64,000 nt of DNA from Flavobacteriales bacterium (GTDB lineage Bacteria > Bacteroidota > Bacteroidia > Flavobacteriales > UBA7312), in assembly GCA_965661345.1 (NCBI GenBank), contig CBFIDK010000004.1, positions 7,503-71,502 of the forward strand. Reading direction: 5' to 3'. The notes below the pieces were generated by a model, which saw only the letters and a program-made list of their open reading frames with translations, ran no database searches and was not told the origin of the DNA. Position 1 is the stretch's first letter, and the number at the start of each line of letters is the position of its first letter. Positions 2,153-31,698 of this stretch are shown here, piece after piece. Both the position numbers and the translations under genes were made by a program.

Positions 2153-2195
2153 TTTCTTTGCGATATATTTTCAATAATTTTACACAGCATTTCCT

Positions 2196-2227
2196 AAAAA
2201 CTCCACCATATTTTGGTGGAGTTTTTT
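2196..2227 (-). terminator. Rho-independent terminator between the lipoprotein gene and the TonB-dependent receptor gene
   Basis: CTCCACCA-TATT-TTGGTGGAG stem-loop flanked by an A-run and a T-run. Confidence 0.6.
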
Positions 2228-2244
2228 AGGGAATTTATTAGTTT

Positions 2245-3456
2245 TTAGTTTTCACTAAAATAACATGTCCATGAAACAAATTTCGATTCATCAGCACCTA
2301 CAGTTGGTGTTGTAACATCTGTAGCATTGAAATTTGCATTGCTGCCAGTTTGATCATCACAAATTTCTGACACCATGTTTTTACAAGAGTCAGCTAAGTG
2401 AGACGTGTTAAATTGTAAATTTGAGAATGTTAAAGCAGAAGCTCCATTTGTATTTGTTGACCCATCAATCTCAAAGTCAGATTCGCAAGAAAAGTTATAG
2501 AAATATAAGTTTGTAAGGTTTCCTGTTGCTTCTTTTCTAAAGTCAGCATATTCGCCACCTCCTGGGTAAAACCCTTTTAAAGTGCCATTTGACATTGTAA
2601 ACTGCCCTACCATAGAACCTTCTGGGCCATCAATTTCTAAAGCATGATCAGACTCAGCATCAGCTATTCCCATAAAGTTACTAATTGTTCCAGAGTATGA
2701 TTGATCAATATCAAAGGCGTCGTCACCTTGTGCCCACACTAAAGCGTGATTGATATTAACGGAGCCTCCGAAGCACTCTATTCCATCATCAACATTCCCA
2801 ATGACCTCTACGTATTCAACTGTTGTTCCAGAGCCTACTCCACCAAGTGTAAGACCATTAATTTCATTATCGTCTCCGAGTAAAGTTCCTCCGTGACGGA
2901 TTTGGATATATCTAATAATTCCTGAATTATCATTATTGTCTGAGCCACCATATAATCCATTTGAATCAGATGCTGGAATGCCTTCAATTTGTTTTTCGGC
3001 AGCATCAGCTGATATTTCTGCATTACCAAGAATAATTACCCCTCCCCAATAGCCTTTGTATGATTCATCAAGGTTTGCAAAACCAGGATAATTTGAGTGA
3101 GTATTAGTAATTTGATCAGCTGTTGTTGTAAAAATAATTGGCTCAGAAGCAGTGCCTTCAGCCATCAGTTTACCCCCTCTCGCAATGATTAAAGCGCAAG
3201 CGTTAGCCTCTTGTCCTGGGTAGGCTTTAACAACCGTACCAGCTTCTATTGTTAAAGTTACACCTGAAGGAACAACAACACGCCCTGAAAGTTCGTATAC
3301 ATTATCTTTTGTCCAGGTTACATTTTCTGAGATAACACCTGAATATTCAGTTGTTATATTGGGTGTTGGAATAGGAGCGGGTTCACTATCACCACCACAA
3401 GATATAATAGCGAAAGATGTAATTATTAATGTTAGTTTTAAAATTGATTTTTTCAT
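2245..3456 (-). CDS. Secreted lipoprotein of unknown function (repetitive G/D/N-rich, possibly beta-helix-like)
   Basis: 403-aa ORF. Lipoprotein signal MKKSILKLTLIITSFAIISCGG. Lies directly upstream of the TonB-dependent receptor gene on the same strand. Confidence 0.7.
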   Translation of the reverse strand: MKKSILKLTLIITSFAIISCGGDSEPAPIPTPNITTEYSGVISENVTWTKDNVYELSGRVVVPSGVTLTIEAGTVVKAYPGQEANACALIIARGGKLMAEGTASEPIIFTTTADQITNTHSNYPGFANLDESYKGYWGGVIILGNAEISADAAEKQIEGIPASDSNGLYGGSDNNDNSGIIRYIQIRHGGTLLGDDNEINGLTLGGVGSGTTVEYVEVIGNVDDGIECFGGSVNINHALVWAQGDDAFDIDQSYSGTISNFMGIADAESDHALEIDGPEGSMVGQFTMSNGTLKGFYPGGGEYADFRKEATGNLTNLYFYNFSCESDFEIDGSTNTNGASALTFSNLQFNTSHLADSCKNMVSEICDDQTGSNANFNATDVTTPTVGADESKFVSWTCYFSEN

Positions 3457-3553
3457 TTTTAATTAGTTTTAAATTTGTTTCTGCAAACAAACAGACTAAC
3501 TGTATACTTTAAGTGATGTAATAATTATCAAAAAAGAAATTTTTACTGCAAAA

Positions 3554-3574
3554 ATTGTAAAGTAATTGTAAAGT
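3554..3574. promoter_or_regulatory. Tandem direct repeat ATTGTAAAGT-A-ATTGTAAAGT, candidate OmpR/PhoB-type response-regulator box
   Basis: Two identical 10-mers with 11-bp periodicity, upstream of the lipoprotein gene. A related TGTAAAGTA occurs at 4322-4330 upstream of the regulator gene. Confidence 0.35.
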
Positions 3575-3585
3575 CATTAATGAAT

Positions 3586-4251
3586 TCAAGGTAATATCTT
3601 GTAGCCTACTCCTTTTACAGTAATTATTGAATTTGGTCCTAAAGCCTCTCTAATACTTCTTATGTGAACATCAATAGTTCTACTACCCACAAATACTTTT
3701 AGCCCCCAAACATTGGAATATATTTCATCCCTTGTGAATACCTTTCCTGGCCTTGAAGAAAGTAAACAAAAGATCTTGAATTGTTTTTTTGGCAATAAAA
3801 TATCCTTATTCATGTATTTTATTGTATGTGATGGAAAGTCTATAATAAAGTCATTTACTTTCTTAAAGCCCTTAAAGTCATTACTTGAGAATTTTATTTT
3901 CAACAATCCATTTATTTTGTTAATCAAAAGTTTAGGATTTATTGGTTTTGTAATAAAATCATTACATCCTGCCTTATATGCAGCTATTTTAGTATAGTTT
4001 TCATTTCTTGCGGATAAAATTACAATAATGATGTTGTTATTTCCTGAATCCCTGACTTCTTGACAAACTTCAATACCATCTATCTCAGGCATCATTATGT
4101 CCAAAATTGCAATATCTGGATTTTCTGATTTTATTTTATTTAAAGCATCAATTCCGTCACCAGACTTTATAACAGTGAAATTAGCTTGTCTAAGGTTGTA
4201 TGACAAAAACTCTAGCGTATCATGTTCGTCATCAACAATTAAAATTTTCAT
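3586..4251 (-). CDS. OmpR/PhoB-family response regulator (receiver + winged-helix domain); no sensor kinase adjacent
   Basis: 221 aa. MKILIVDDEHD...DIAILDIMMPEIDG receiver motifs. C-terminal ...FTRDEIYSNVWG...TIDVHIRSIREAL...VKGVGYKI winged helix. Confidence 0.9.
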   Translation of the reverse strand: MKILIVDDEHDTLEFLSYNLRQANFTVIKSGDGIDALNKIKSENPDIAILDIMMPEIDGIEVCQEVRDSGNNNIIIVILSARNENYTKIAAYKAGCNDFITKPINPKLLINKINGLLKIKFSSNDFKGFKKVNDFIIDFPSHTIKYMNKDILLPKKQFKIFCLLSSRPGKVFTRDEIYSNVWGLKVFVGSRTIDVHIRSIREALGPNSIITVKGVGYKILP

Positions 4252-5524: not shown

Positions 5525-6922
5525 ATGACTACAATAAAAAACGATTTAAAATTATTCAATCAGCTTGCAGAAGTTTTAATTAGCGAAGAAAGTCAAAACC
5601 CTGTTGCTGAAAGAATAGAAGTAAATCAATTATATGATACTCTGGATTTATCTTTAGGCGAAAATGGTATTATTGATGAAAATTTAAAATCGTTGTTAAG
5701 AGATGTTTTAATAGCAACCCCAAAAACAGCAACAAGTTTATTTTTTAATCAACTTTTTGGAGGCAGGCAACCCAAAGCAATATTGGGTGATTTATTGGCT
5801 GTATTACTAAATAATAGTATGTACACCTACAAAGTAGCAGGTCCTCAGGTGGGTATAGAGCAAGAAATTATTAGAAAATCTTGCCAATTAGTTGGTTATG
5901 GTCCAAATAGTAATGGAACATTTCCAACAGGAGGGTCTATGAGCAATTACATGGCTTTAATTTTAGGGCGAGATGTAAAAGACCCTAAATGTCGTTTTGA
6001 TGGAATGACAAAACCCTTAATTATTTATACTTCTATTGAATCACATTATTCGAACGCTAAAAATGTAAGTTTCGCAGGTATTGGTAGAAATAATATTCGA
6101 TATATAGAAGTTGATAGCGAGGGCAAAATGATAGTTGAAAAGTTAGAAGAACAAATTAAAGAAGATATTAAAAATGGCTGCATTCCAACCTATGTAAATG
6201 CAACAGCAGGCACTACAGTTTTAGGAGCTTTTGATCCACTTGACAAAATTGCAGATATTACTGAAAAATACAATATTTGGTTACATGTAGATGGGGCATA
6301 TTGTGGTAGCGTGATGTTTAGCAAAAAATATAAACACCTTCTGAAAGGAGTAGAAAGATCTGATTCATTTAGTTACAATGCCCATAAAATGCTGGGAACT
6401 CCCTTAACTTGTTCTATTCTTTTAGTAAATGATAAAAAACATTTACACAATTCCTTTAGTAATGATGCCAGTTATTTGTACCAAACAGATGGCGATGATT
6501 TTAATTTGGGTAAAACCTCCTTTCAATGTGGAAGAAGAAATGACGCTTTAAAGTTCTGGACACTTTGGAAATCTGTGGGAATTAATGGATTAGAAAAAAT
6601 TATAAATCAACAATTCGAATTGGCTAAATTTGCCATTGATTACATTAAGAATAATCCTAATTATACCTTATATAGTTTTGATGACTCTATTTCTGTTTGC
6701 TTTAATTATAAAGACGTTGACCCTGTAAAATTATGTGCTGCTTTATATGAAAATCAAGAAACTGTTGTTGGTTTTGGTTCCTTTCAGGAAGATACCTTCG
6801 TAAGGTTTGTAACCATTAATGCAAATAACAGTAAAAATAACATCTTGAATTTTTTCAAAATTCTAGAAGATTTTGTTGCCAAAACACCTCAATTAAGAGT
6901 CACATCAGTATTAAATGTATAA
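5525..6922 (+). CDS. PLP-dependent group II decarboxylase, cysteine-sulfinate/glutamate decarboxylase-like
   Basis: 465 aa. SFSYNAHKMLGTPLTCSILLV matches the PLP-lysine region of GAD/CSAD enzymes (N.HKM.G.PL.CS.LL). Confidence 0.85.
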   Translation: MTTIKNDLKLFNQLAEVLISEESQNPVAERIEVNQLYDTLDLSLGENGIIDENLKSLLRDVLIATPKTATSLFFNQLFGGRQPKAILGDLLAVLLNNSMYTYKVAGPQVGIEQEIIRKSCQLVGYGPNSNGTFPTGGSMSNYMALILGRDVKDPKCRFDGMTKPLIIYTSIESHYSNAKNVSFAGIGRNNIRYIEVDSEGKMIVEKLEEQIKEDIKNGCIPTYVNATAGTTVLGAFDPLDKIADITEKYNIWLHVDGAYCGSVMFSKKYKHLLKGVERSDSFSYNAHKMLGTPLTCSILLVNDKKHLHNSFSNDASYLYQTDGDDFNLGKTSFQCGRRNDALKFWTLWKSVGINGLEKIINQQFELAKFAIDYIKNNPNYTLYSFDDSISVCFNYKDVDPVKLCAALYENQETVVGFGSFQEDTFVRFVTINANNSKNNILNFFKILEDFVAKTPQLRVTSVLNV

Positions 6923-6953
6923 GCTGTTTACATAAATATAATTTTAAGTTATA

Positions 6954-8486
6954 GTGATAGATCAAAATTTAGTAATCAAATTAGCTGTGCTAGCTGTTTA
7001 TGTTGGAATTCTTTTTCTTATTGGGCTTTTAGCTTCTAGCAAAATAAAAGGGATGAGTGATTACTATGTTGGCGGCAAAAAAATGGGGTTTTGGGCGGTT
7101 GCTTTTTCTGCAAGAGCCACAGGTGAATCTGGTTGGTTATTGATTGGACTAACAGGAATGGGAGCTATTGCGGGTTATTCTGCTTATTGGGTTGTTATAG
7201 GAGAATTGTTAGGTGTTTTTATTTCTTGGCAATTTATGGCAAAACTTTTCAAAAAAAGATCAGATGCTTTTGGCGCAATTACAATTCCAGATTACTTACA
7301 ATCTCATTTTAAAACATCGACTCATACGTTGAGAATAATAGCTTCTTTTATGCTGGTTGTTTTTATAGTTATTTATGTAGCTTCTCAGATAGATGTTACG
7401 GGTGTAGCCTTCGAATCTATGCTTGGAATAAATTACAAATTAGGTGCTTTGATTGGGTTTTTCATTGTGCTTGCATATATCTTCCTTGGTGGATTTGTAG
7501 CTGCGGTTTGGTCTGATTTTTTTCAGGGATTGCTAATGTTCTTTGGTTTAGTTTTATTACCTATTGTTGTTTGGTTTTCTATGGATCATGGCGCCGGAAT
7601 TAGTGCTGAACTTAACGCTATAGATCCTACGCTGACCAATATTATGGGTAGAAGTTCTGATGGTTGGATGAACCTTTTTACTATTCTTGGATTTTCAATG
7701 ATAGGTCTTGGTTTTTTGGGATCACCTCAAGTATATGTAAGATTTATGTCGATTAAAGACAAAAAAGAAATTGACAAAGGAAAATGGATTGCCTGTATAT
7801 TTACCTTGTTAACAGATGCTGCCGCAGTAACTATTGGAATTTTAGCACGTATCTATTTTACTTCAGAGGGACAAGATCCTGAAGTTGTTTTAGGAAATAA
7901 TGGAGAAGGTGTTTTAGGTATGATTACAGAATCGTTTTTGCCAACAATTTTGGCTGCCATTTTTGTGGCTATTGTTTTATCTGCAATTATGTCTACGATA
8001 GATTCTTTATTAATATTGGCCTCAAGTGCCATTACTCGAGATTTTTATCAGAAAATATTTAGACCCGATATCAAAAATGAAAATCTCACGAAATTTTCTA
8101 GGAGATCTACTGTAATTATAGCATTTTCAGCTTTAATTATTGCATTAATTATGAACTATGTTTCTCCGGATCGACAAATATTCTGGGTGATTATATTTGG
8201 TTGGTCTGGAATTGCAGCCACATTTTGTCCGGTAATTATACTAACTCTTTTCTGGAAAGGTTATTCTGAAAAAGGAGCTATTGCTTCTATGGCTTCTGGA
8301 TTTATAGCGGTTATGTTATTCAATTTTATTTTTAAAGAAATGGAAACTATAGGGGCGTATTTTGTCGCTTTAGATGTATTATTCCCAGCATTCTTAGTGT
8401 CTATTATTGTTGGTTTTGTTGTTTCTAAATTATACCCTCCAAGCAAAGAAGCTCAAAATATGATTGAAAGAATTGACAATGGGTAA
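6954..8486 (+). CDS. Sodium:solute symporter (SSF family, PutP/PanF-like)
   Basis: 510-aa polytopic membrane protein with typical SSF N-terminus and multiple TM segments. Confidence 0.85.
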   Translation: MIDQNLVIKLAVLAVYVGILFLIGLLASSKIKGMSDYYVGGKKMGFWAVAFSARATGESGWLLIGLTGMGAIAGYSAYWVVIGELLGVFISWQFMAKLFKKRSDAFGAITIPDYLQSHFKTSTHTLRIIASFMLVVFIVIYVASQIDVTGVAFESMLGINYKLGALIGFFIVLAYIFLGGFVAAVWSDFFQGLLMFFGLVLLPIVVWFSMDHGAGISAELNAIDPTLTNIMGRSSDGWMNLFTILGFSMIGLGFLGSPQVYVRFMSIKDKKEIDKGKWIACIFTLLTDAAAVTIGILARIYFTSEGQDPEVVLGNNGEGVLGMITESFLPTILAAIFVAIVLSAIMSTIDSLLILASSAITRDFYQKIFRPDIKNENLTKFSRRSTVIIAFSALIIALIMNYVSPDRQIFWVIIFGWSGIAATFCPVIILTLFWKGYSEKGAIASMASGFIAVMLFNFIFKEMETIGAYFVALDVLFPAFLVSIIVGFVVSKLYPPSKEAQNMIERIDNG

Positions 8487-12620: not shown

Positions 12621-12739
12621 CCATTTGTTATTTAATCTCAATAAAAGAATTATAAGACATTGTGAGAAAAAAAGCGGAAAACTATCTCAGAATGAGATGG
12701 ATTCCGCTTTGGTGGACCTAAGCGTCTTTATTTCGAACT
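12621..12739 (-). repeat. tRNA-Val terminator/att-like repeat, copy R3, including a ~45-nt relic of the recombinase 3' end
   Basis: CCATTTGTTATTTAATCTCAATAAAAGAATTATAAGACATTGTGAGAA aligns without gaps to 20402-20449 (end of the recombinase ORF). It is followed by AAAAAGCGGAAAACTATCTCAGAATGAGATGGATTCCGCTTTGGTGGACCTAAGCGTCTTTATTTCGAAC. Confidence 0.85.
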
Positions 12740-12747
12740 TCTATTAT

Positions 12748-12776
12748 AAAGCCCCAAGCATTTAGCTTGGGGCTTT
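12748..12776. terminator. Bidirectional-looking rho-independent terminator
   Basis: AAAGCCCCAAGC-ATTT-AGCTTGGGGCTTT perfect hairpin. Confidence 0.6.
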
Positions 12777-12800
12777 TAAATTTAAAATATTTCGATTCTT

Positions 12801-13115
12801 TTATTGAAGCACCATTTTACTGTTGACATTTCCTTTGTCTGAACTTATCTCTAAAAAGTAAACACCTTTAGGTTTATCAGTCATTTTTAACTCGTAGCTG
12901 TATGATCCGTTAAAGTCAAACAATTCTTCATTAAAAATCTCCTCTCCTATGACATTGACTACTTTAATAATTATAGATTGTATTTCTTTTGAACTGAATG
13001 ATATGTTAAAAATATCTCTTGTTGGATTAGGATAAATGTTTAAATCAGAAACAATATCAGATTCTAATCTTGCTCCACCTAGAGTGTATTCAACTGACGA
13101 TGAGAAGATAGCCAC
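12801..13115 (-). pseudogene. Relic consisting only of a T9SS type-A C-terminal sorting domain (N-terminal passenger missing)
   Basis: ...LNIYPNPTRDIFNISF...KGVYFLEISSDKGNVNSKMVLQ* is a Por secretion tail. The 104-aa ORF has no signal peptide or passenger domain. Confidence 0.55.
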
Positions 13116-13185
13116 ACTAATATTAGTTATTCTTTATTTGATATTAAAAACTAAGCCATTAAACTTAGTTAAGAATGATTATAAA

Positions 13186-13434
13186 ATGGAAAATGAAATA
13201 AAATTATACATTGATCAAAACCTACCTAATGTTACCATTGTCAAATTATTAGATGTATTTAACATATCCAATGCTGAGTTATACAAAGCTATGAGGAATG
13301 AGAAGCCAGGCCATTATATCCGAACTAAACGTTTGGAAAAACTTAAAGAGGCTAAGTTAAACTCTAAATCTATTGAAGAGGCTAGTTCTTTAACAGGTTT
13401 CTCAATTAGTTATTTAAAGAAAATTTACACTTGA
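13186..13434 (+). CDS. Small stand-alone AraC-type HTH protein
   Basis: Internal Met of track ORF 13036-13434: MENEIKLYIDQNL...ISNAELYKAMRNEKPGHYIRTKRLEKLKEA...IEEASSLTGFSISYLKKIY. Confidence 0.45.
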   Translation: MENEIKLYIDQNLPNVTIVKLLDVFNISNAELYKAMRNEKPGHYIRTKRLEKLKEAKLNSKSIEEASSLTGFSISYLKKIYT

Positions 13435-13662
13435 TGAAAATCATGAAACATCAAATGTAGATATCGGAAATCATTGTTCAGACCCTTATGACTTTGATTT
13501 TAAAGGAACCTGTTAGAAACACATTCTTGACTACTCGATTTTTAATATTTCAAGATTAAATAAGGACAAGAAGTTCGATTTATTTAATCAAGGTCGACTA
13601 ACTTTTTACATTTTACTTGCTGTTATTAAAATAAACTGTAATTTTGCAAGTGATTACTCACT

Positions 13663-14187
13663 ATGACTGAAAAACAAGAAAAGATCATTGAAGCGGCTCT
13701 GGAATTATTTTCAAAGAATGGTTTTCATGCTACCTCAACCAGCAAAGTAGCAAAGCATGCCGGGGTGTCTGAAGGACTTATCTTTCGTCATTTTGAGAAT
13801 AAAAACGGCTTATTAACTGCCATTGCTAAAATGGCAGAAGAAAAAATGGGTGGTGTTTTTTATAGTGTCATCACAGAAAGTGACCCTAAAAAACAAATCC
13901 GCCTCTTCCTTGAAATGCCTTTCGAAATTAAAGAGGAAGATAAAGAGTTTTGGAGACTTCAGTTTAAATTAAAGTGGGAGCTAAACACCCATAGTAAAGA
14001 TAAAATGAAGCCTATTACAGATGCGCTGACTATTGCACTCCAAAAGCTGGGGTACAAATCGCCAGAGATGGAGGCTCACTTCCTTTTGTTTTTTGTGGAA
14101 GGAATCTCTACCTCTATATTAAGAAAAAGCATGCGTCTTGATCAAAAGGAAGTTATATCCTTCCTTATTAATAAATATGACTTGTAA
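13663..14187 (+). CDS. TetR/AcrR-family transcriptional regulator
   Basis: 174 aa. IIEAALELFSKNGFHATSTSKVAKHAGVSEGLIFRHFENK HTH. Confidence 0.9.
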   Translation: MTEKQEKIIEAALELFSKNGFHATSTSKVAKHAGVSEGLIFRHFENKNGLLTAIAKMAEEKMGGVFYSVITESDPKKQIRLFLEMPFEIKEEDKEFWRLQFKLKWELNTHSKDKMKPITDALTIALQKLGYKSPEMEAHFLLFFVEGISTSILRKSMRLDQKEVISFLINKYDL

Positions 14188-14234
14188 AAAATTTAAACTT
14201 AAAGTAAGTAAGTAATCACTAATAAAAGCAAAAA

Positions 14235-14735
14235 ATGGAACTATTAAAACTCGCAATCGACTGGGCAAAAACAGAAATCTTTTCATCAACTTTCTTTGTT
14301 GTTTTTGGCATCCTCTTTTTATTGGCAAGCCTAGGGTTTTGGCAATTTGGTAAAACTGATTTAGCAAAAGCCTATATAATACCAAGCTTAGTAGCTGCTG
14401 TTTTGCTATTAATCATAGGAAGCGGATTAATTTATAGCAACCTATCCAGAGTAAATAGCTTTCCAAACGATTATAGACAGGATGCTGTGAGCTTTGTAGA
14501 ATCAGAAATTGACCGCACTGAAAAGACTTTAAAAGGTTATAAAAATGTATTTGTTATCATCCCGTTAATCATCGCTATCTGTGCCTTGTTAATGATCTTT
14601 TTCGACTCAGCAGTTTGGAGAGCAAGCTTGATAACAACCATTGCGATGATGTCTGTCATTTTATTGATAGACGGCAATGCCGGGTCTAGGATTGAGGCCT
14701 ACCATAAGCAGTTATTATTAATTAAGGAAAAATAA
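14235..14735 (+). CDS. Membrane protein (4 TM), unknown function
   Basis: 166-aa hydrophobic ORF between the TetR and SDR genes. Confidence 0.65.
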   Translation: MELLKLAIDWAKTEIFSSTFFVVFGILFLLASLGFWQFGKTDLAKAYIIPSLVAAVLLLIIGSGLIYSNLSRVNSFPNDYRQDAVSFVESEIDRTEKTLKGYKNVFVIIPLIIAICALLMIFFDSAVWRASLITTIAMMSVILLIDGNAGSRIEAYHKQLLLIKEK

Positions 14736-14741
14736 AGCAAA

Positions 14742-15578
14742 ATGAAAAAAGTAGTTTTAATAACAGGCGCTTCTACCGGAATGGGAAAAGATGCTGCCTT
14801 ACACTTAATTAAAGAAGGGTACATTGTGTATGGCGCTGCGCGTAGACTATCTCATATGGATGACATAGTAGCGAGAGGCGGACACGCTATACAGCTGGAC
14901 ATCCTTGATGAAGCGGCTATCGATGAAGCTGTTCATCGAATTATGGACGAGCAAGGAAGAATTGACATACTGATCAACAATGCGGGCTATGCTGTTTGGG
15001 GAGCCGTTGAAACTGTTTCTATGAAGGATGCTAGGAGACAGTTTGATGTGAACATCTTTGGGCTGGCAAGCCTCACCAAAAAGATCATTCCCATAATGCG
15101 CGCTCAGCAAAGTGGTAAAATCATCAATTTATCCTCTATGGGAGGTCGCATATACTCTCCATTTGGCGCTTGGTATCACGCAACCAAACATGCCTTAGAG
15201 GGCTGGTCAGATTGTTTGCGTATAGAGCTCAAAGAGTTCGGCATCAATGTCATCTTAATAGAGCCAGGAGCAATAAACACTGAGTTTGGAGATGTTATGA
15301 TGAGTGATATGCTTGAAAGAGCCAAAGGAAGTCCTTATGAACAAAAAGTTAGCGCTATGCACAAAGCGTCCTTAGAAGTGTATGAAAAGGGAACTGGATC
15401 GCCTCCATCGGTTATAACAGACCTTATTATTAAGGCTATTAACAGTGCCAAACCAAAAACACGCTATGTAGGTGGCAAGTATGCCAAACCAATGCTATTC
15501 ATTAGAAAATGGTTTGGAGAAAGAGCTTTTGAAATGGCTGTAATGAGCCAAATAAACGCCATAATCAAAAAGAAGTAA
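14742..15578 (+). CDS. Short-chain dehydrogenase/reductase
   Basis: 278 aa. TGASTGMGK cofactor motif, NNAG, catalytic YHATKHALEG (YxxxK). Confidence 0.9.
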   Translation: MKKVVLITGASTGMGKDAALHLIKEGYIVYGAARRLSHMDDIVARGGHAIQLDILDEAAIDEAVHRIMDEQGRIDILINNAGYAVWGAVETVSMKDARRQFDVNIFGLASLTKKIIPIMRAQQSGKIINLSSMGGRIYSPFGAWYHATKHALEGWSDCLRIELKEFGINVILIEPGAINTEFGDVMMSDMLERAKGSPYEQKVSAMHKASLEVYEKGTGSPPSVITDLIIKAINSAKPKTRYVGGKYAKPMLFIRKWFGERAFEMAVMSQINAIIKKK

Positions 15579-15579
15579 A

Positions 15580-16242
15580 ATGAAAGTTATCATTACAGGA
15601 GCCACTGGGATGGTAGGTAAAAGCGTATTGCTGGAATGTTTAGATCACAAAAAGGTTGAAAAAATTCTAGTTGTTAACCGGAAACCTTTAAAAATGAAAC
15701 ACCCAAAAGTAGTAGAGTTAGTTGTTTATGATTTTAATAATATAACTCAGTATCAAGACAGCTTAAGGGATTATGACGCTTGTTTCTTTTGTATGGGTAT
15801 ATCATCAATTGGATTAAACGAATCTACCTATACGGGTGTTACCTATGGTATTACAAAGGCTTTTGCAGACACCCTATTTAAGCTAAATAAAAAAATGGTG
15901 TTCAATTATGTTTCAGGTACTAATACGGACAGTAGTGAGAAAGGCAACAGTATGTGGGCAAGAGTGAAGGGGAAAACAGAAAATTACATTCTTAATAAGG
16001 GCTTTAAGGATGCTTACATGTTTCGCCCTGGCGCCATTGTTCCTGAAAAAGGAATCAAATCCAATACCGTTTGGTACAATGTTTTGTATGTGTTGGCAAG
16101 GCCTTTTTTTCCACTAATGAAAAAAAATAAAAACATTACCACTACTTCCAAGCTTGGGGTAGCCATGATCAATACGGTCTTAAAACCCACTGATCTTAAG
16201 CACTTAGAAAATGTGGATATCAATAGATATGCTGTATTATAA
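15580..16242 (+). CDS. NAD(P)H-binding (atypical SDR/NmrA-like) oxidoreductase
   Basis: 220 aa. MKVIITGATGMVGKSVL Rossmann motif. Confidence 0.8.
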   Translation: MKVIITGATGMVGKSVLLECLDHKKVEKILVVNRKPLKMKHPKVVELVVYDFNNITQYQDSLRDYDACFFCMGISSIGLNESTYTGVTYGITKAFADTLFKLNKKMVFNYVSGTNTDSSEKGNSMWARVKGKTENYILNKGFKDAYMFRPGAIVPEKGIKSNTVWYNVLYVLARPFFPLMKKNKNITTTSKLGVAMINTVLKPTDLKHLENVDINRYAVL

Positions 16243-16674
16243 ATGAATCAAAAAAAAATGATTGGAACAATTGCATGGAGCGTAGTTGGCTTAGCCATTG
16301 TTGGGAGTTGTCTTTTCTTAGGCTTTAGTCCAGAATTTGGCGGTAAACATTCGAAAGAGGATCTTAAGCGGTATGAGCGCTCTGGGAATATTAAAGATGG
16401 TGTGTTTCAGAATAAGACTACCACTAAAATGGACATGAGTATGAAAGACATGGCCTCTATTATGAAAGAGTTTCTTTCGAAAAAAGGAGAGAAAACTCCC
16501 GATCGTGAACCTCCATTTAAAAAAGTTGACTCAACCTTATTAGCTGATTCTTATGACGACTTTTCTTTTGTCTGTTTTGGACATTCTACCTTTTTTCTTA
16601 AAATGGGGCAAAAGAAAATACTTTTAGACCCTATGTTTAGCAATGTTCCTGCTCCACTTTTTTCCAAGAATTAG
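16243..16674 (+). pseudogene. 3'-truncated paralog of the MBL-fold hydrolase gene at 11475-12587
   Basis: 143 aa, colinear with the N-terminus of the 370-aa protein (FGHSTFFLKMGQKKILLDPMFSNVPAPL vs FGHSTFYVKLEGYHILLDPMFSEVPAPL). It stops before the HxHxDH motif. Confidence 0.7.
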
Positions 16675-16732
16675 CGGTTAGTTTTACTTTATTTATTTCA
16701 AATTATTTGTTTCAAATATAAAAAAGATAATA

Positions 16733-16790
16733 AACTATTACGTCACTAAGTTTATTGGTAGTGATAAGAAAGAGCGGGGTGTTATTCTAT
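16733..16790. repeat. Hairpin repeat family 2, copy A
   Basis: AACTATTACGTCACTAAGTTTATTGGTAGTGATAAGAAAGAGCGGGGTGTTATTCTAT. Related copies at 46303-46365, 47610-47660 and 46787-46840. Confidence 0.75.
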
Positions 16791-16977
16791 AAACTAGATT
16801 TTCACAAAATCATTATAAATAATATTCGCTATTAACCGAACATCTTATTATAAGATTTTGATTTTTTTAAGCAGATAACTTAAATAAAATTTATCTAACT
16901 ATATAAGCCGGGTCTCTCATAAAACTATACTAAAAAACTCTTCTAAGTTAATTTTTTGTTGTTAAAGAACCTCAAAT

Positions 16978-17056
16978 CTTTGTGAGAATAAAAAAAGCGG
17001 AACACTGTCTCAAAATGAGATGGATTCCGCTTTGGTGGTCAATAAGTTTTTTCGAA
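16978..17056 (-). repeat. tRNA-Val terminator/att-like repeat, copy R4 (left boundary of the intact element)
   Basis: 16978-17038 is identical to 20440-20500 (61 bp). It is followed by the stub TCAATAAGTTTTTTCGAA, which resembles the tRNA-Val T-arm/acceptor. Confidence 0.9.
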
Positions 17057-26166: not shown

Positions 26167-27393
26167 TTAAACAAGTTGGTTAAGTGCAATTTCAAAAGAT
26201 GTTTTGGAAATATTTTTTCTTGTTGGGTTTATCTTATGAGATTTTTTTAGTGCGTTCATTATAGTTTTTGAAGTGTCTTCAAAAATAGCAGTATCGGTCA
26301 TTTCGATATCGGCATTCATCAAATAGGCAAAAACTCTTGCCATCCCGCAATTTGCAATAAAATCTGGTATAACACTAAGGCGTTCATCAGTAAATTCACT
26401 AATGTCTCCAAAAAAGATTTCCTTATCAGCGAAAGGTACATTAGCACCACATGATATGACCTCTAGTCCTCCGTTAATCATTCTCTCTATGTGGTTTTGA
26501 GTAACTAGCCTCGAAGCGGCAGCGGGCACAAATATTTCGGCACCTATGTTCCAAATTTTCGAATTGACTTCATCGAAGGATAGCATTTTGTCTGAAGATA
26601 ATTTATTACCATTTTTATTTAGGAATAGTTGTCGAATTTCCTCGAAAGAAAAGCCTTCCTCATTAATTAATCCGCCTTCTTGGTCAATAATTCCAACTAC
26701 CTTTCCGCCAGATTGTGCTTGATAGAAAGCGGCAGCTGAACCAACATTTCCCCAGCCTTGAATTATTATTCTTTTATCTTTTACACTTTCATTGTGAAGT
26801 TTGTAAAAATGCTCAATAGCCTCAGAAACTCCATATCCAGTAATCATATCAGCTACTGTATATTTTTTGTCAACATTTGGCGTCAGTGATTCATCTTCAA
26901 TAGCTAACAAAACGCCTCTTTGAAGTTGAGAAATAATTTTATTTTTTTCTTCGGGACTTGGATTAAAATGGCCATTAAAAACACCCTCTTGCGGGTGTTC
27001 AACTCCTAGTTCTTTTGTAATAGGAATGACTTCATGAATTTCATCGACGTTTAAATCGCCACCAGTTCCATAATAATTTTTAAGAAGGGGACTAATCGCC
27101 GCATACCAACGTTTTAAAACGCCTTCTTTTCTAGGGTCTTTGGGGTCAAAATTTATACCAGATTTAGCGCCGCCTATGGATGGGCCAGCTACAGTAAATT
27201 TCACCTCCATGGTTTTTGCTAACGATACAACTTCATGCTTGTTCAGGCCTATTCTCATTCGAGTGCCACCACCTGCTGCGCCACCTCTTAATGAATTAAT
27301 AACTACCCATCCTTGAGCTTCTGTTTGGCTATCGCTCCATTCAAATACAATTTCAGGCTTTTTGTTTTCGTATTGGTTTAATAAATTTTTCAT
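26167..27393 (-). CDS. Glu/Leu/Phe/Val-family amino-acid dehydrogenase
   Basis: 408 aa. GGAAGGGTRMR and GWGNVGSAAA motifs. Confidence 0.85.
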   Translation of the reverse strand: MKNLLNQYENKKPEIVFEWSDSQTEAQGWVVINSLRGGAAGGGTRMRIGLNKHEVVSLAKTMEVKFTVAGPSIGGAKSGINFDPKDPRKEGVLKRWYAAISPLLKNYYGTGGDLNVDEIHEVIPITKELGVEHPQEGVFNGHFNPSPEEKNKIISQLQRGVLLAIEDESLTPNVDKKYTVADMITGYGVSEAIEHFYKLHNESVKDKRIIIQGWGNVGSAAAFYQAQSGGKVVGIIDQEGGLINEEGFSFEEIRQLFLNKNGNKLSSDKMLSFDEVNSKIWNIGAEIFVPAAASRLVTQNHIERMINGGLEVISCGANVPFADKEIFFGDISEFTDERLSVIPDFIANCGMARVFAYLMNADIEMTDTAIFEDTSKTIMNALKKSHKINPTRKNISKTSFEIALNQLV

Positions 27394-27424
27394 CGAAAGT
27401 AAATTTCAGCAAAAGTAATTATTA

Positions 27425-27631
27425 TTAGCTAAAATATTTACCAGTAGTTGAATTCCTTTTTGCACCTGTAACAGACGCTATACAATTGATTTCATTTCGC
27501 CTATTCAACACGCCCAAAAGACCAAAAATCATAGCTTCTTTATACTCAATGAGATTTTTATCGCCCAACACAAAATTTGATTTTGAATGTGATTGTATTC
27601 TATCCATCAAAAAGAAGTTGTAGACTCCTCT
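27425..27631 (-). pseudogene. Orphan 3' fragment of anmK (duplicate of 30658-30863)
   Basis: MMDRIQSHSKSNFVLGDKNLIEYKEAMIFGLLGVLNRRNEINCIASVTGAKR... is near-identical to the AnmK C-terminus. Nucleotide identity is high across ~190 bp. Confidence 0.85.
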
Positions 27632-27713
27632 CTGAATAGCCTCAATACAAATAGTTTGGCTTAGTCGTACTTTCTAAACATAAAATAATGTCTTTGACAC
27701 CCTCGCACTGTTT

Positions 27714-27863
27714 TTATTTCTTTGTTTTCTTTTTGAAGAAAAAGGGTACAAAAAACACGGATAAAGCTCCCATTAAGCCAGCAATAATGCTGTCAGTAAT
27801 AAAATATAAAACAATTGCAAGCGGAATGTAAAACAATATACTTTCTAAAAAATGTTTATTCAT
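27714..27863 (-). CDS. Possible 49-aa membrane peptide
   Basis: Own translation: MNKHFLESILFYIPLAIVLYFITDSIIAGLMGALSVFFVPFFFKKKTKK*. Below the track length cutoff. Confidence 0.35.
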   Translation of the reverse strand: MNKHFLESILFYIPLAIVLYFITDSIIAGLMGALSVFFVPFFFKKKTKK

Positions 27864-28128
27864 AACTAAGTATGGATTAATCTAATGTATCTGAACCAAA
27901 ATTTCATAAAAAAAAATTTGATTTAATTTATTGCATCTGCTTTGTAAGTATCAAAATGCAAGTTATTTAAAAACTCCATTGTGGATAAATTATAATGATT
28001 AAATAAAACAGTATCTAATTTAACAGTTATGTTTTGAGCATAAAGAGAAGATATAAAAAGGCTAGAAATAATTGTAAGTGTTTTTATCAATTTAAGATTA
28101 GAGCTAAAGTTAATAAAAATAATCTTCT

Positions 28129-28593
28129 TTACTGAATTTTAATTTTATCAATTGTACTTAGAGATTTTACAAATTCTAACTGTTGAGTTAATTGCATAGC
28201 ATCTATTTTGAAAATACTGTCTATTTCTAAGTTTTTGTTTAATAAAATAACTCCAGAATTTTTTATTCCTAGCTCATAATATTCTTCTTTATAATCAAAG
28301 ACAAGAGTGTTTTCTAGTACATTTTTTTTGATTTCTGTAAGATCAATTAATGTGCCTAAAGCATTAACTACAATAAGTGTACTGTCGAATTTATGCTGTG
28401 TGACAGTATTTGCTAAACCGCTATTACAGGGAGGACAACCTTTTTCGGTTAAAACAATAATGGAGTGATAAGTCTTTCCCAGTTGATGACCTTCTAAATA
28501 CTCATGAAATTTATTTTTCTGTTTACAAGACAAAAAAACACTAATCAATAGTATAAATGTCAAAATGGGTTTTAAGTGGGTCGTAGTTTTCAT
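28129..28593 (-). CDS. Thioredoxin-fold lipoprotein with CPPC motif
   Basis: 154 aa. Lipobox LISVFLSC. VLTEKGCPPCNSG redox-type motif. Confidence 0.6.
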   Translation of the reverse strand: MKTTTHLKPILTFILLISVFLSCKQKNKFHEYLEGHQLGKTYHSIIVLTEKGCPPCNSGLANTVTQHKFDSTLIVVNALGTLIDLTEIKKNVLENTLVFDYKEEYYELGIKNSGVILLNKNLEIDSIFKIDAMQLTQQLEFVKSLSTIDKIKIQ

Positions 28594-29728
28594 TGTAATA
28601 TTTGTTTTTTCTAGTATACCAGCCTTTAGTTGTAAGAAAAGAGAAAAATAATCTTATTTCAGGGTTTTCAACGATGATTTCATCTAGAAATATAAAATCC
28701 TTATCGTAAATCAACATAGACCAATTACGTTTATACCAAGAGTCTTCACTTGGACCATTGTAAGGGTGGTATGCCGAAATGTAATATCTTTGATGAATCT
28801 CATCATAAAATAAATTAGATAAATAGTTAGCATTAATAGTGCTCCAAGCGCCAAATTTTGGCATGGTATTTTCATAGTCTTCTTTGAACTCATAGAACTT
28901 TAACGATTGATCAACCTTATTTTTATAGTCCAAGTAAATGGTCTTATGATGTTCTCCATTTAAATCGTAAACAAACAAACAATCTATTCCAAATGATATT
29001 ATATGAATCAAATCATTATAAAAACTGTAATCCGGGATATCAGCTGCCATATGATTTTTAGGAACAAATCGAAAAAAAGAATCTACTAAAAAACTCAAAT
29101 CAGGTGACTCGCTAAAAATATTTTTTACTTCAATTAAATAAGGAGTCTCTCTTTTTATGTTGTATGCCTTGATTAAATAGTCTAAGAATGGTTTTGCGGT
29201 ATCAACTGGCAAATCAAATCCTCTGTAAAGGTATAATGTTTTGTTAAACAGAAAATCATTACCCCCAGAAGTTGAAATTAAAGTTGCTGGAAAAAGCGTA
29301 TCAGATAAAAATGAGTTAAGATTCACTTGTTTAATGCATTTTCCACTGTCATTGATGGCGAAAACTATACCTGTACGATAACTTAGTGCCAGAATGGTGT
29401 CTAAAGACCAAATGCTAATATCTTCTATCCGATGTCCTTGTGTTGCTTTTTTGTAGTCAATGGTTTTATGTAGCTTACCATCCAATGTGAAAAAACTGAC
29501 TTTCCTTTCTGTGCTACCATTACTTAAATAGATGTATTCAACCTCAGTTTTTGAATCTACAAAGTATCCTGAATGCTTAGAGCTGACTGCAAAATCTGTT
29601 TCAAAGACTTGTTCGCCTGTTTTTATAAGTTGTAGACCTTTCTTTTTTTTGCACCCTAAACCAATTGTCATCAAAATTAAAGCAGCGGATAATATTATCC
29701 GCTGCTTTAATAGATTTGTTATTCTCAT
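28541..29728 (-). CDS. Lipoprotein, possibly beta-propeller-like (family not assignable by eye)
   Basis: 395 aa. Lipobox LMTIGLGC. Aromatic-rich repetitive beta-type sequence. Confidence 0.55.
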   Translation of the reverse strand: MRITNLLKQRIILSAALILMTIGLGCKKKKGLQLIKTGEQVFETDFAVSSKHSGYFVDSKTEVEYIYLSNGSTERKVSFFTLDGKLHKTIDYKKATQGHRIEDISIWSLDTILALSYRTGIVFAINDSGKCIKQVNLNSFLSDTLFPATLISTSGGNDFLFNKTLYLYRGFDLPVDTAKPFLDYLIKAYNIKRETPYLIEVKNIFSESPDLSFLVDSFFRFVPKNHMAADIPDYSFYNDLIHIISFGIDCLFVYDLNGEHHKTIYLDYKNKVDQSLKFYEFKEDYENTMPKFGAWSTINANYLSNLFYDEIHQRYYISAYHPYNGPSEDSWYKRNWSMLIYDKDFIFLDEIIVENPEIRLFFSFLTTKGWYTRKNKYYNENYDPLKTHFDIYTID

Positions 29729-30201
29729 CTTACAAATTTGAGTTGATATGCCATTTTCTCGCCGTTCGATCTGTCTTCAAATAATAAGAATTTTAAATTA
29801 TCCTTTTGATTTTCTCGAGCAGTTACGGACATTCTACCGCTTTTTACGCCATTCACATAGTAGGGGTTAATATAACGGATCAGCACATCGAAATTGGCAT
29901 TAAATTTTTGGGCAATTACATCAGAATCGCCTTTACCTATTTCGGAGAAAAGATCTATGAATACATTGTAGTCGGGAGTTATGATAACATCATCATCTGA
30001 CCATAAACAAGTATTTCCAGGTGAGCTACAATTTGTTTCATCCCCGTCTAAGTGTAAATGATAATTCCCAGCGATAGCTGACCTTTGAACAACCGAATGA
30101 CTATCATCATTATTAATGTATTCATCTGTTGTTTTTGAACAAGATACAATTAGGGCACTTCCTACTAAAAGAAACACACCTATTTTAAAAAAGTTTTTCA
30201 T
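29725..30201 (-). CDS. Lipoprotein of unknown function
   Basis: 158 aa. Lipobox GSALIVSC. Confidence 0.55.
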   Translation of the reverse strand: MKNFFKIGVFLLVGSALIVSCSKTTDEYINNDDSHSVVQRSAIAGNYHLHLDGDETNCSSPGNTCLWSDDDVIITPDYNVFIDLFSEIGKGDSDVIAQKFNANFDVLIRYINPYYVNGVKSGRMSVTARENQKDNLKFLLFEDRSNGEKMAYQLKFVR

Positions 30202-30398
30202 TTTAATTTGGGTTTAAGTTAATGTTTCCCCTTAATAGAAAGGGGTTTTGATTGGGTAGTTAGGTGCTACCACACATGACTTTTAGCTTTTTCAGTCTTT
30301 GGTTAAAAGATCATAATGCAAGTTAGTATTTTATATGAATTAATTTCTAGGCAAATATGCCTGCGCAATTATTTGGTGCTATTTGCATTTTTGATTTC

Positions 30399-30650
30399 AT
30401 GAAAAGCTTATCATTCCCAAACGAAAAGAAATACCTAAACCATTTGGGTGCAAAACTTCGTGAAATTCGTCTTTCTAAGTCTTTTACTCAAGCTCAGTTG
30501 GCTATTGATGCCAATATGGAAGTGTCACAAATAAGTCGCATAGAACGTGGAGTTCTAAACACTTCTGTATTAACCTTACTGAAAATTGCTGTTGTTTTGG
30601 ACGTAGAGATTTCGGATTTTTTGCCCAATTATTTTTCAGAAGATAATTAG
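30399..30650 (+). CDS. XRE-family HTH transcriptional regulator
   Basis: LGAKLREIRLSKSFTQAQLAIDANMEVSQISRIERGVLNTSVLTLLKIAVVL. The track ORF starts at 30357; the internal Met at 30399 is more plausible. Confidence 0.75.
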   Translation: MKSLSFPNEKKYLNHLGAKLREIRLSKSFTQAQLAIDANMEVSQISRIERGVLNTSVLTLLKIAVVLDVEISDFLPNYFSEDN

Positions 30651-30657
30651 CTATTTT

Positions 30658-31698
30658 TTAAGCATAGTTTTTTCCTGCTATCGAATCTCTTTTTGCACCT
30701 GTAACAGACGCTAAACAATTGATTTCATTTCGCCTATTTAACACGCCCAAAAGACCAAAAATCATAGCTTCTTTATACTCAATGAGATTTTTATCGCCCA
30801 ACACAAAATTTGATTTTGAATGTGATTGCATTCTATCCATCAAAAAGGAGTTGTAGGCTCCTCCGCCAGTGACTAAACATCCCCCTTTCGTAATGCATTG
30901 GCTAATCTGAATAGCGGCATGCTCAACTAGTGTAGATAGTTTATTTTTTACAGTTTCTTCATGCTTTTCAATTACTGCAATGAAGTTTTCTTCAAGCCAT
31001 TCTTTGCCAAGCGATTTTGGTGGAGTTTGGTGGTAGTAGTCTAAGTTGTTCAATTCATTTAAAAGACGAGTGTTAATCGTGCCACTTTTAGCGATGTCGC
31101 CGTTTTTATCAAACTGGTATCCTAATTTTTTAGAATAGTAATTCAAAGCAATATTGACGGGGCAAATGTCAAAGGCTTTTCGAACGCCATTTTCGGAATA
31201 TGAAAAGTTACTAAATCCGCCCAAGTTGAGGCAGTAATCGTATTCGTTGAAAAGAATATCATCTCCGACTGGAACAAGTGGAGCGCCTTGCCCGCCAAGT
31301 TCAACGTCCAGACTTCTAAAATCACTCACCACAGGAATTTTTAATGATTTATGAATTATTGCGCCATTGCCTATTTGATGCGTAATGCCTTTTTCAGGCT
31401 GGTGAAGTATCGTATGCCCATGAGAACATATCAAATCTACCTCAAGTTTATGTGTGCTGATGAAATGTTCAATCAAATTGGATAAAAACCCAGCGTACTT
31501 TACATCAATGTTGTCGATGTAGTCTTTATTTTTTAAATGTAAGTTGCCCAATTCTTTAAGCCACTCATCGTCATAAGAATACGTATGGCAAGGGCCTAAA
31601 TTATATTGCCATTTTCCATTATGGGTAAAAGTGATGTAAGCTAAGTCAACCCCATCTAATGAAGTGCCCGACATTAATCCTATTACTCTGTATTTCAT
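30658..31698 (-). CDS. anmK: Anhydro-N-acetylmuramic acid kinase
   Basis: MKYRVIGLMSGTSLDGVDLAY... start at 31698 (the track ORF is extended to 31782). ...LGGQGAPLVP... motif. Confidence 0.85.
   Translation of the reverse strand: MKYRVIGLMSGTSLDGVDLAYITFTHNGKWQYNLGPCHTYSYDDEWLKELGNLHLKNKDYIDNIDVKYAGFLSNLIEHFISTHKLEVDLICSHGHTILHQPEKGITHQIGNGAIIHKSLKIPVVSDFRSLDVELGGQGAPLVPVGDDILFNEYDYCLNLGGFSNFSYSENGVRKAFDICPVNIALNYYSKKLGYQFDKNGDIAKSGTINTRLLNELNNLDYYHQTPPKSLGKEWLEENFIAVIEKHEETVKNKLSTLVEHAAIQISQCITKGGCLVTGGGAYNSFLMDRMQSHSKSNFVLGDKNLIEYKEAMIFGLLGVLNRRNEINCLASVTGAKRDSIAGKNYA

Follow-up and report, generated by a model that had tools for sequence, protein, structure and literature searches.

Between anmK, the gene of anhydro-N-acetylmuramic acid kinase, and gdh, the gene of a Glu/Leu/Phe/Val family dehydrogenase, an uncultured marine flavobacterium carries a strain-variable genomic islet that is bound to this locus and bracketed by two copies of the anmK 3' end. 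We analyzed it in a 64-kb stretch of contig CBFIDK010000004.1 of a Flavobacteriales bacterium (assembly GCA_965661345.1, positions 7,503 to 71,502 of the forward strand), called the window in the following, with position 1 at its first letter. The present gene order is the body of anmK, a foreign tail linked to the islet, the islet itself, the last 62 codons of the species' own anmK, the native gdh promoter and gdh. An original prediction, made from the sequence alone, had seen here an element that integrates into the 3' end of a protein-coding gene while carrying a surrogate end. We arrive at a variable genomic islet of the ordinary kind, beside which a gene end was displaced, and consider recombination more likely than self-integration as its origin. 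For the duplication itself we see about an even chance that it goes back to a recombination in which an occupied and an empty allele were joined through homology and the exchange was resolved illegitimately, a course of the type known as C-terminal displacement.

Structure of the duplicated gene end

A repeat search of the 24-34 kb region of the window returned the two copies of the anmK 3' end as a pair of direct repeats of 209 nucleotides (nt) with 90% identity and a spacing of 3233 nt (27422-27630 and 30655-30863), which agrees within 3 nt with the repeats originally proposed. The open reading frames (ORFs) and translations quoted along with them were correct as well. Alignment and blastn delimit a core of 181 nt (27450-27630 and 30683-30863) that is 96% identical with 7 mismatches, and the 3' terminal ~25-31 nt of the copies are strongly diverged (~55% identity). 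A 209-nt repeat at such identity is far beyond chance in 64 kb; all other repeat families in the 24-34 kb region of the window are of 33 nt or less.

As predicted, the right-hand copy (copy A) completes the intact gene. Its product of 346 amino acids (aa) matches the AnmK models of Pfam and NCBIfam (Table 1), has the same length as the gene called in the contigs L048 and L049, which lack the islet, and ends with ...AKRDSIAGKNYA before the stop. The left-hand copy (copy B) is an orphan. Its ORF (27425-27610, 61 aa, ending with ...AKRNSTTGKYFS before the stop) matches only the last 60 positions (297-356) of the AnmK model NF007144 and is not part of a larger gene. The insert between the copies has the content that had been described: three lipoprotein ORFs of 158, 395 and 154 aa, all with signal peptides of the lipoprotein type, two small ORFs of 55 and 49 aa, and a regulator of the XRE family, the stop of which is 7 nt apart from that of anmK. 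Searches with Pfam and NCBIfam profiles gave no recombinase domain in the islet ORFs of the window. The G+C content of the insert is 0.22-0.34 compared to 0.35-0.40 in the flanks.

Empty sites and the foreign tail

The empty-site alleles that the original prediction called for exist in the same species. The contigs L048 (15.6 kb) and L049 (11 kb; contigs are given here by working handles) run from anmK over 31 nt directly into gdh, with the same neighbors as the window on both sides. The flanks of such conspecific contigs are 99.7-99.9% identical to those of the window (for L048 99.94% and 99.85% on the two sides), their gdh protein is 100% identical, and the exact gdh protein of the window is present on both empty and occupied contigs. 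With blastn, a single 181-nt stretch of L048 aligns to both copies in the window. Further empty sites were found on L051, again with an identical gdh protein, and on L066 and L068 in a ~98% strain. The closest species representatives, L001 (AnmK 73%) and L002 (61%), are also empty and have the same layout of stop codon, 31 nt and ATG. The 31-nt spacer is identical in L048 and L049 and near-identical in L001 and L002.

If compared with the empty allele, the two gene ends of the window differ in character. Copy A is identical to it at positions 30689-30863, agrees with L048 at all of the 165+23 nt that precede the tail and matches the empty allele down to ...GGTGCAAAAAG, after which the foreign tail of 31 nt follows. 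This switch from species-type to foreign sequence is sharp and lies between GCAAAAAG and AG. The foreign tail differs from the empty-site tail at 14 of 31 nt. Compared with the anmK tail of the related lineage L064, its first 13 nt are identical and the overall identity is ~73%; beyond the tail, homology with L064 runs into the 3' end of the XRE gene (~74-80%, and ~74% over 811 nt). The last 10 codons and the stop of the intact anmK are islet-derived, and the terminal codons beside the insert, which had been suspected to come from the element, are indeed foreign: they resemble L064 and continue into the XRE end. Of the tail evidence, only this continuation may be called solid. The idea that the tail type (RDS or NS) tracks the presence of the islet was weakened, the tails being short; the L064 tail is 67% identical to that of its empty neighbor L002 and 73% to the foreign tail of the window.

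Copy B, on the other hand, has a tail and a 31-nt spacer identical to those of the empty-site alleles. Since in the commoner occupied haplotype (L069, L071, L072, L074) it equals the species allele with 1 difference, a single-nucleotide polymorphism (SNP), copy B is to be regarded as DNA of the species itself and not as a surrogate borne by an element. The original prediction had further taken the orphan for the original gene end. While the match of copy B to the empty-site allele fits, this is only one of two equivalent readings of polarity: the chromosome could also have been occupied first and have received the orphan from an empty-site strain.

The last stretch common to copy A and the empty alleles before the tails diverge is a 25-nt segment, TAGCGTCTGTTACAGGTGCAAAAAG, which is a candidate for the exchange point on the anmK side. 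Its first base differs in copy B of the window lineage (ATAGCG instead of TTAGCG), and the other 23-24 nt are identical in every copy.

Variation among occupied alleles

Occupied alleles of the species comprise two cargo types between identical islet ends. The type of the window, with genes for 158, 395 and 154 aa, occurs in the window, L055 and L056/L070. The commoner type, with genes for 150, 390 and 181 aa (the latter with a CxxC motif), was found on L069, L071, L072, L074 and others, on at least 10 metagenome contigs altogether, and three contigs of this type from independent assemblies span the locus from anmK to gdh. Comparison with the alternative cargo at L069 9066-11225 revealed that window positions 27944-28153 are 97% identical to L069 10588-10797, where the 390-aa gene starts. 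Cargo was thus exchanged inside the islet, because the 55-aa ORF of the window is not an independent gene but what is left of the 5' part of the other type's 390-aa gene. On one side the swap breaks at the start codon of the first cargo gene (window ~30196); on the other it breaks 8 codons short of the stop of the gene that precedes the 390-aa gene (window ~28153).

All seven contigs that reach the left boundary of copy B, with both cargo types and L057 among them, have this boundary in common. Since all occupied alleles have one repeat boundary, the duplication originated once in the species. Copy B of the window lineage has 4 further differences, 3 of which are clustered within 29 nt. In addition, two contigs from the gdh side (L050 1-40 and L054 1-40) possess a hybrid tail, ...GCAAAAAG AG ATTC AACTACTGG..., encoding RDSTTGKYFS and a stop, which has the bases of the foreign tail at the first two variable positions and species-type sequence from there on. 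As it is present in k=31 unitigs, the hybrid tail is real; it could represent a short gene-conversion tract or the scar of recombination between the copies. Likewise, the mosaic variants of copy B indicate gene conversion between the copies, and the SNPs are consequently unusable for mapping the original crossover. An attempt at such mapping from the five SNPs between B and A was rejected: the other haplotype has only one of them, and four are lineage-specific pseudogene changes. With 5 SNPs, the chance that none falls in core plus tail is ~0.2.

The islet in related lineages

The islet is rare. Its 395-aa protein has only 10 homologues among 5.8 billion proteins and, two short contigs left aside, all but one of these are encoded at the same anmK-gdh locus of related Flavobacteriales. 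Homologous islets occupy this locus in L060/L061, L062, L063 and L064. The XRE gene is the left-end gene in all lineages in which it was called, and its orthologues in L062, L063 and L064 abut or overlap the anmK stop. The XRE proteins of the window and L062 are 65% identical, the 154-aa protein is 65% identical to its orthologues in L060 and L062, and the 158-aa protein is 46-53% identical to those in L062 and L060. The gene of the 49-aa peptide is more conserved, with nucleotide identities of 91% to L063 and 83-84% to L062/L060 compared to 67-74% for the rest of the islet, and the peptide matches the C-terminus of a 111-aa ORF of L062 with 73% aa identity. Such conservation suggests that a small membrane protein is under selection here or that the segment was exchanged recently. 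Taken as a whole, the islet differs between lineages (XRE 65%; the 395-, 158- and 154-aa proteins 46-72% aa identity) about as much as its flanks do (AnmK, PolyExp and GDH 58-79%).

None of the related islets comes with a duplicated gene end. Repeat search, tblastn and sensitive blastn detected no second anmK 3' end, not even a decayed orphan, in L060/L062, L063 and L064, and 0 of the 47 other Bacteroidota anmK loci retrieved have a second copy within 10 kb. Nor did the gene tables of the occupied contigs (L055, L056, L060-L064, L069 and L071-L080) list a recombinase in the islet, on at least 12 contigs from five lineages. The original prediction had also proposed to look for the islet elsewhere, in particular next to a recombinase. 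No match to islet DNA was obtained in plasmid, phage and IMG/VR collections, while a distant relative of the cassette was met beside a tyrosine integrase on L065, as described below; a homologue of the 158-aa protein is part of it. A literature search on anmK as an island target found nothing relevant.

A neighbor-joining tree of four flanking proteins does not render the occupied state monophyletic. In contrast to this tree, the 30 nt in front of gdh sort the lineages by whether they have the islet: L064 falls with L062 and L063, and L002 with the window species and L001. Recombination in the flanks that carries the islet along with its junctions would have this effect.

Origin of the duplication

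We infer that a single event in the species produced the duplication. In a general recombination of an occupied with an empty form of the locus, a homologous exchange in one flanking gene would have been combined with an illegitimate joint at the other end, where the first gdh codons at the right end of the islet would have been fused to anmK codon ~285. Neither an islet-encoded nor a dedicated site-specific recombinase would take part. The process would be homology-facilitated illegitimate recombination, with the geometry of C-terminal displacement in rhs and type VI secretion system (T6SS) effector loci; the same process has been proposed for the orphaned 3' ends in rhs and T6SS arrays (PMC5361080). 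Two mirror versions, which differ in donor and recipient, fit equally well: either an islet-bearing fragment anchored in anmK came into an empty chromosome, or an occupied chromosome took up a fragment of an empty allele that reached from anmK codon 285 to gdh and was anchored in the latter. Afterwards, short gene-conversion tracts would have been exchanged between the 181-nt copies and the cargo swapped between its two variants. In principle, the repeats could also loop the islet out by RecA-dependent recombination.

The novel joint at 27630/27631 connects the islet end to anmK codon ~285 and shows no extended homology. Homology with the islets of the relatives stops at the stop codon of the 49-aa gene. 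For the 83 nt beyond it, a local alignment with the gdh-upstream spacer of L064 is colinear and ends with ATTGA/AATGA (score 28 versus a null mean of 18.9, p~0.012), which suggests that the islet segment once ran into gdh as it does in the relatives. On this evidence, which is no more than suggestive, the right end is probably a decayed gdh upstream region and start codon of the donor type. A MAFFT alignment of this end with gdh-upstream regions was uninformative.

Several points weigh against such a recombination. The geometry, a duplicated 3' end with a surrogate tail by the insert, is exactly what an integrase would produce. The 83-nt match is weak (p~0.01), concerns one lineage only and was scored against mononucleotide shuffles. 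A clean occupied allele of the species, that is the islet without the orphan, was not found: the orphan is present on every contig that reaches the right end (all contigs bearing the 49-aa gene), and consequently one of the parental alleles is hypothetical. We know of no natural transformation or other DNA-uptake route in this organism, which is itself known only from metagenomes. The tree was built from four proteins, and its placement of L064 has little support, which comes mainly from one of them. On L065, an unrelated 7-kb metagenome contig, a 44%-identical cassette of lipoprotein, beta-propeller and CxxC genes (2077-4207) lies 1.5 kb from the gene of a 423-aa tyrosine integrase (5708-6979), and the cassette may thus ride on true integrative elements elsewhere. 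Finally, contig L057 (ENA ERZ23491248 scaffold_32102, 3124 nt) contains a junction of the circle or tandem type (2330-2520), in which the head of copy B is joined to the tail of copy A. Its order is the 3' part of the 158-aa gene, the genes for 395, 154, 55 and 49 aa, the B head, the A tail, the XRE gene and the 5' part of the 158-aa gene. L057 is 109 nt short of a 3233-nt unit and does not close on itself, and its markers switch from B type to A type inside an 89-nt perfect repeat and not at the putative core. As it is a short-read scaffold from a sample in which the copies are apparently identical over ~146 nt (L050), a real RecA product or a short-read mis-join would each be sufficient as an explanation.

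The most obvious alternative is a site-specific integrative element, either of the type of e14 or phage 21 in icd, or the remnant of a cis-mobilizable element (CIME) without integrase, the enzyme having been lost or acting in trans. An attP with a surrogate anmK 3' end would have recombined with the anmK 3' end, with the exchange in or near TAGCGTCTGTTACAGGTGCAAAAAG. We regard this as unlikely, although it has much in its favor: foreign terminal codons beside the insert and conspecific empty sites complete the classic geometry, the sharp switch to foreign sequence in copy A falls inside the conserved 25-nt stretch, a precedent is well established in e14, which sits in icd and leaves icdC as an orphan (PMC13626634), and the circle-type junction of L057 and the integrase beside the L065 cassette would fit as well. 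Moreover, the same window harbors tandem islets with 83-nt repeats at a tRNA-Val gene, one with a large serine recombinase and one with none. However, the claim of a self-integrating element with a surrogate end is not supported, in view of the following findings. An islet recombinase is absent in all five lineages and every strain examined, the islet lacks an att-like duplication in four related lineages, the single repeat boundary points to one insertion event in the species, and the 47 other loci give no sign that the site is used recurrently. The ~30 proteins scanned of the 56 window ORFs of at least 120 aa include no tyrosine integrase. The large serine recombinase was considered as the trans-acting enzyme and rejected, its att region sharing only chance-level 9-mers with the anmK repeat. 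In addition, ~150 nt of the species' own anmK upstream of any crossover are duplicated, which an attP does not need, and the duplicated anmK block is 99.5% identical to the host while the tail reaches 55%. The switch in L057, lying within the 89-nt repeat, is where recombination between repeats or mis-assembly would place it.

Two other scenarios do without an integrase. In a Campbell-type single crossover by RecA, a circle (anmK codons 285-346 with the foreign tail, the islet and the gdh start), formed by illegitimate deletion or loop-out in an occupied strain, would have integrated into an empty-site chromosome via ~175 nt of anmK homology, and the same repeats would now permit loop-out and tandem amplification. 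This yields exactly the structure seen; the order of L057 corresponds to a 3233-nt circle or tandem unit minus 109 nt, its junction is the product expected of recombination within the 89-nt identical stretch, and the mosaic B copies show that both repeats recombine. Yet two rare events are needed, first the formation of an illegitimate circle and second its transfer with integration, the islet was not found on any plasmid, phage or viral contig, and for the unclosed L057 a mis-join suffices, which makes this course rather improbable in our eyes. It is very improbable that the duplication is ancient, with an islet flanked by A and B already in the ancestor of the clade and with presence and absence alternating since. 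The empty sites (L001, L002 and some strains) would then have arisen by repeated precise recombination between A and B; L060/L062, L063 and L064 would have lost B, which fixed the islet, and in the window species B would have been kept near-identical to the active gene by recombination with empty-site alleles. The similar divergence of islet and flanks between lineages and the lack of monophyly of the occupied state fit this scenario, and A-B recombination recreates the same junction and would explain the identical stop-31 nt-ATG spacing in three empty lineages. But four lineages retain no trace of B, the sampled empty alleles lack the G at the fourth marker position, a B-specific SNP that most A-by-B excisions should have left behind, it would take much to keep a 206-nt pseudogene 99.5% identical through divergence at the genus level, and the gdh-upstream region of the occupied lineages differs in type from that downstream of B. 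At most with a small probability, finally, the islet is an active satellite without recombinase that carries a surrogate anmK tail, forms the 3233-nt circle of L057, re-integrates at the ASVTGAK-coding segment of anmK via a recombinase from another genomic locus or a helper element and hops between genera of marine Flavobacteriales. If true, this would explain its patchy distribution at one locus.

Comparison with known systems

In Escherichia coli, e14 and phage 21 insert into icd and leave the orphan pseudogene icdC (PMC13626634; Hill et al. 1989 cited therein). As there, the insert of the window lies in the 3' end of a housekeeping protein gene, which is completed by insert-borne terminal codons with substitutions, while the host's original 3' end is left as an orphan at the far end of the insert; in both cases, loss of the insert restores a chimeric but functional gene. 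In contrast to the islet, all versions of which lack a recombinase, e14 brings an integrase of its own and leaves the chromosome upon SOS induction. The islet differs further in that its relatives show no duplication and that 175 nt of the duplicated block are the species' own, foreign sequence being limited to the last 31 nt.

A closer counterpart to the displaced gene end is found in the effector-immunity arrays of the T6SS of Vibrio cholerae and in rhs loci, for which C-terminal displacement via homology-facilitated illegitimate recombination was proposed (PMC5361080). There, a segment held by homology to a gene's conserved portion introduces a new 3' end and the cargo downstream of it, and the arrays are then shuffled by ordinary homologous recombination (PMC5361080). 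The old 3' end and a piece of the conserved region are pushed downstream as an orphan, and no integrase is involved. The anmK locus has the corresponding traits: copy A with its foreign tail lies upstream of copy B, which consists of the species' own codons ~285-346, a dedicated recombinase is lacking, the islets of the relatives are clean, and two cargos have the same ends. Nevertheless, the systems differ. In the rhs and T6SS loci, conflict-driven selection acts on the diversification of toxin tips, and a useful immunity gene stays with the displaced unit. The islet locus instead comprises a peptidoglycan-recycling kinase with an incidental tail, a single displacement was seen, and the anmK orphan is of no obvious use beyond carrying the native gdh promoter.

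Flexible genomic islands of marine bacteria, additive or replacement, are exchanged by recombination in conserved flanking genes. The anmK islet resembles them in occupying the same locus across lineages, in its presence or absence within a species at >99% flank identity, in its alternative cargos with the same ends, in its lower G+C content and in its surface-exposed or lipoprotein products. Unlike the islet, they normally leave no duplicated gene end; the orphan is the record of an aberrant, one-sided recombination. CIMEs, such as those beside ICESt3 of Streptococcus thermophilus, are att-flanked and mobilizable in cis without an integrase of their own. They correspond to the islet in that direct repeats from a gene 3' end flank a short cargo without recombination genes, and the tRNA-Val locus of the same window has a CIME-like accretion layout. 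However, no cognate integrase-bearing element at anmK was found in the window, at the 47 related anmK loci or on the contigs of the species.

Current concepts are unchanged by these findings. As a natural example the locus is clean, in that metagenomes have supplied its parental empty allele as well as the product and what later derived from it. Duplication of a gene 3' end around an insert, usually taken as proof of an integrase-driven element, can probably also come from one-sided homologous or illegitimate recombination at a flexible island, which calls for caution with automated callers of islands and att sites. Besides, an uncultured marine flavobacterium is flagged as the carrier of a rare small cassette that varies between strains and comprises, next to the XRE regulator and the 49-aa membrane peptide, a lipoprotein with a DUF4221-like propeller and another with a CxxC motif that is probably thioredoxin-like.

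Table 1. Coordinates of the anmK-gdh locus in the window, listed from anmK to gdh
Feature	Position	Strand	Support or remark
Intact anmK, anhydro-N-acetylmuramic acid kinase, 346 aa	30658..31698	-	PF03702 203 bits; NF007144 453 bits, cutoff 436
Repeat copy A, 3' end of intact anmK	30655..30863	-	
25-nt segment TAGCGTCTGTTACAGGTGCAAAAAG, encodes ..ASVTGAK	30689..30713	-	second copy 27456-27480
Foreign tail of anmK AGATTCGATAGCAGGAAAAAACTATGCTTAA, encodes ...DSIAGKNYA and stop	30658..30688	-	
XRE-family helix-turn-helix regulator, convergent with anmK	30357..30650	+	PF01381 HTH_3 E=2.7e-10
158-aa lipoprotein, first cargo gene	29725..30201	-	lipobox ...LIVSC
395-aa lipoprotein, predicted six-bladed beta-propeller of DUF4221 type	28541..29728	-	AlphaFold model, Foldseek
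154-aa lipoprotein, CPPC motif	28129..28593	-	sequence
55-aa ORF, 5' remnant of the 390-aa gene of the alternative cargo	27923..28090	-	
49-aa hydrophobic peptide gene, conserved right-end gene of the islet	27714..27863	-	
Right end of the islet, 83 nt, non-coding	27631..27713	-	
Repeat copy B, orphan of the last 62 anmK codons, species-type tail ...NSTTGKYFS and stop	27422..27630	-	
Native anmK-gdh spacer, gdh promoter region, 31 nt	27394..27424	-	kept in all empty-site lineages
gdh, Glu/Leu/Phe/Val dehydrogenase family, 408 aa, right flank	26167..27393	-	PF00208, PF02812

Cargo proteins

The AlphaFold model of the 395-aa protein (predicted local distance difference test 77.8, pTM 0.77) is a six-bladed beta-propeller, the best PDB match of which in a Foldseek search is 3s9j (BVU_1028, DUF4221 family; E=1.7e-18, TM 0.68/0.73). 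Pfam and NCBIfam gave no match to this protein at E<=0.01, and with 16% identity its likeness to DUF4221 is at the fold level only. In L060 (10001-13437) and L062 (8866-11176) the propeller gene is present as two or three tandem paralogues with a period of 1123 nt, which overlap by ~50 nt each and are 54-72% identical in aa sequence to the window protein; in both lineages an extra 248-aa gene of no assigned family precedes gdh. For the 158-aa lipoprotein, Pfam and NCBIfam provided no family match. The third gene of each cassette encodes a CxxC motif, and the 181-aa protein of L069 has a match to Thioredoxin_2 below threshold (24 bits versus a cutoff of 27). By analogy, the 154-aa lipoprotein is probably thioredoxin-like. 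PADLOC detected no defense system in the islet, where only the XRE protein matches generic helix-turn-helix models. The cargo would be, at most, a regulated, strain-variable module of envelope lipoproteins.

Other features of the window

The tRNA-Val gene (20495-20572, minus strand) is accompanied by three direct repeats of 83 nt (12641-12723, 16964-17046 and 20426-20508; 66-93% identity), which bound the two tandem islets; each repeat takes in the final ~14 nt of the tRNA together with a hairpin that resembles a terminator. The islet proximal to the tRNA codes for the large serine recombinase (539 aa, ORF 18919-20538, plus strand, PF00239 and PF07508), the only recombinase found among the scanned window ORFs, and a MerR-like protein. 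The distal islet (12724-16963) encodes TetR, SDR and NAD-binding proteins and no recombinase. Synteny with L049, L067 and L069 breaks at 20475, and these strains have different content there.

On the gdh side of the anmK islet, a transporter of the CitMHS family (ORF 23759-25045, minus strand) is 428 aa long in the window and 423-428 aa in other conspecific contigs. In L001, L002, L060 and L062 it comprises 463 aa, with an extra internal segment of ~35 aa near the N-terminus, and the difference in length appears to be a lineage-specific indel in a flanking gene.

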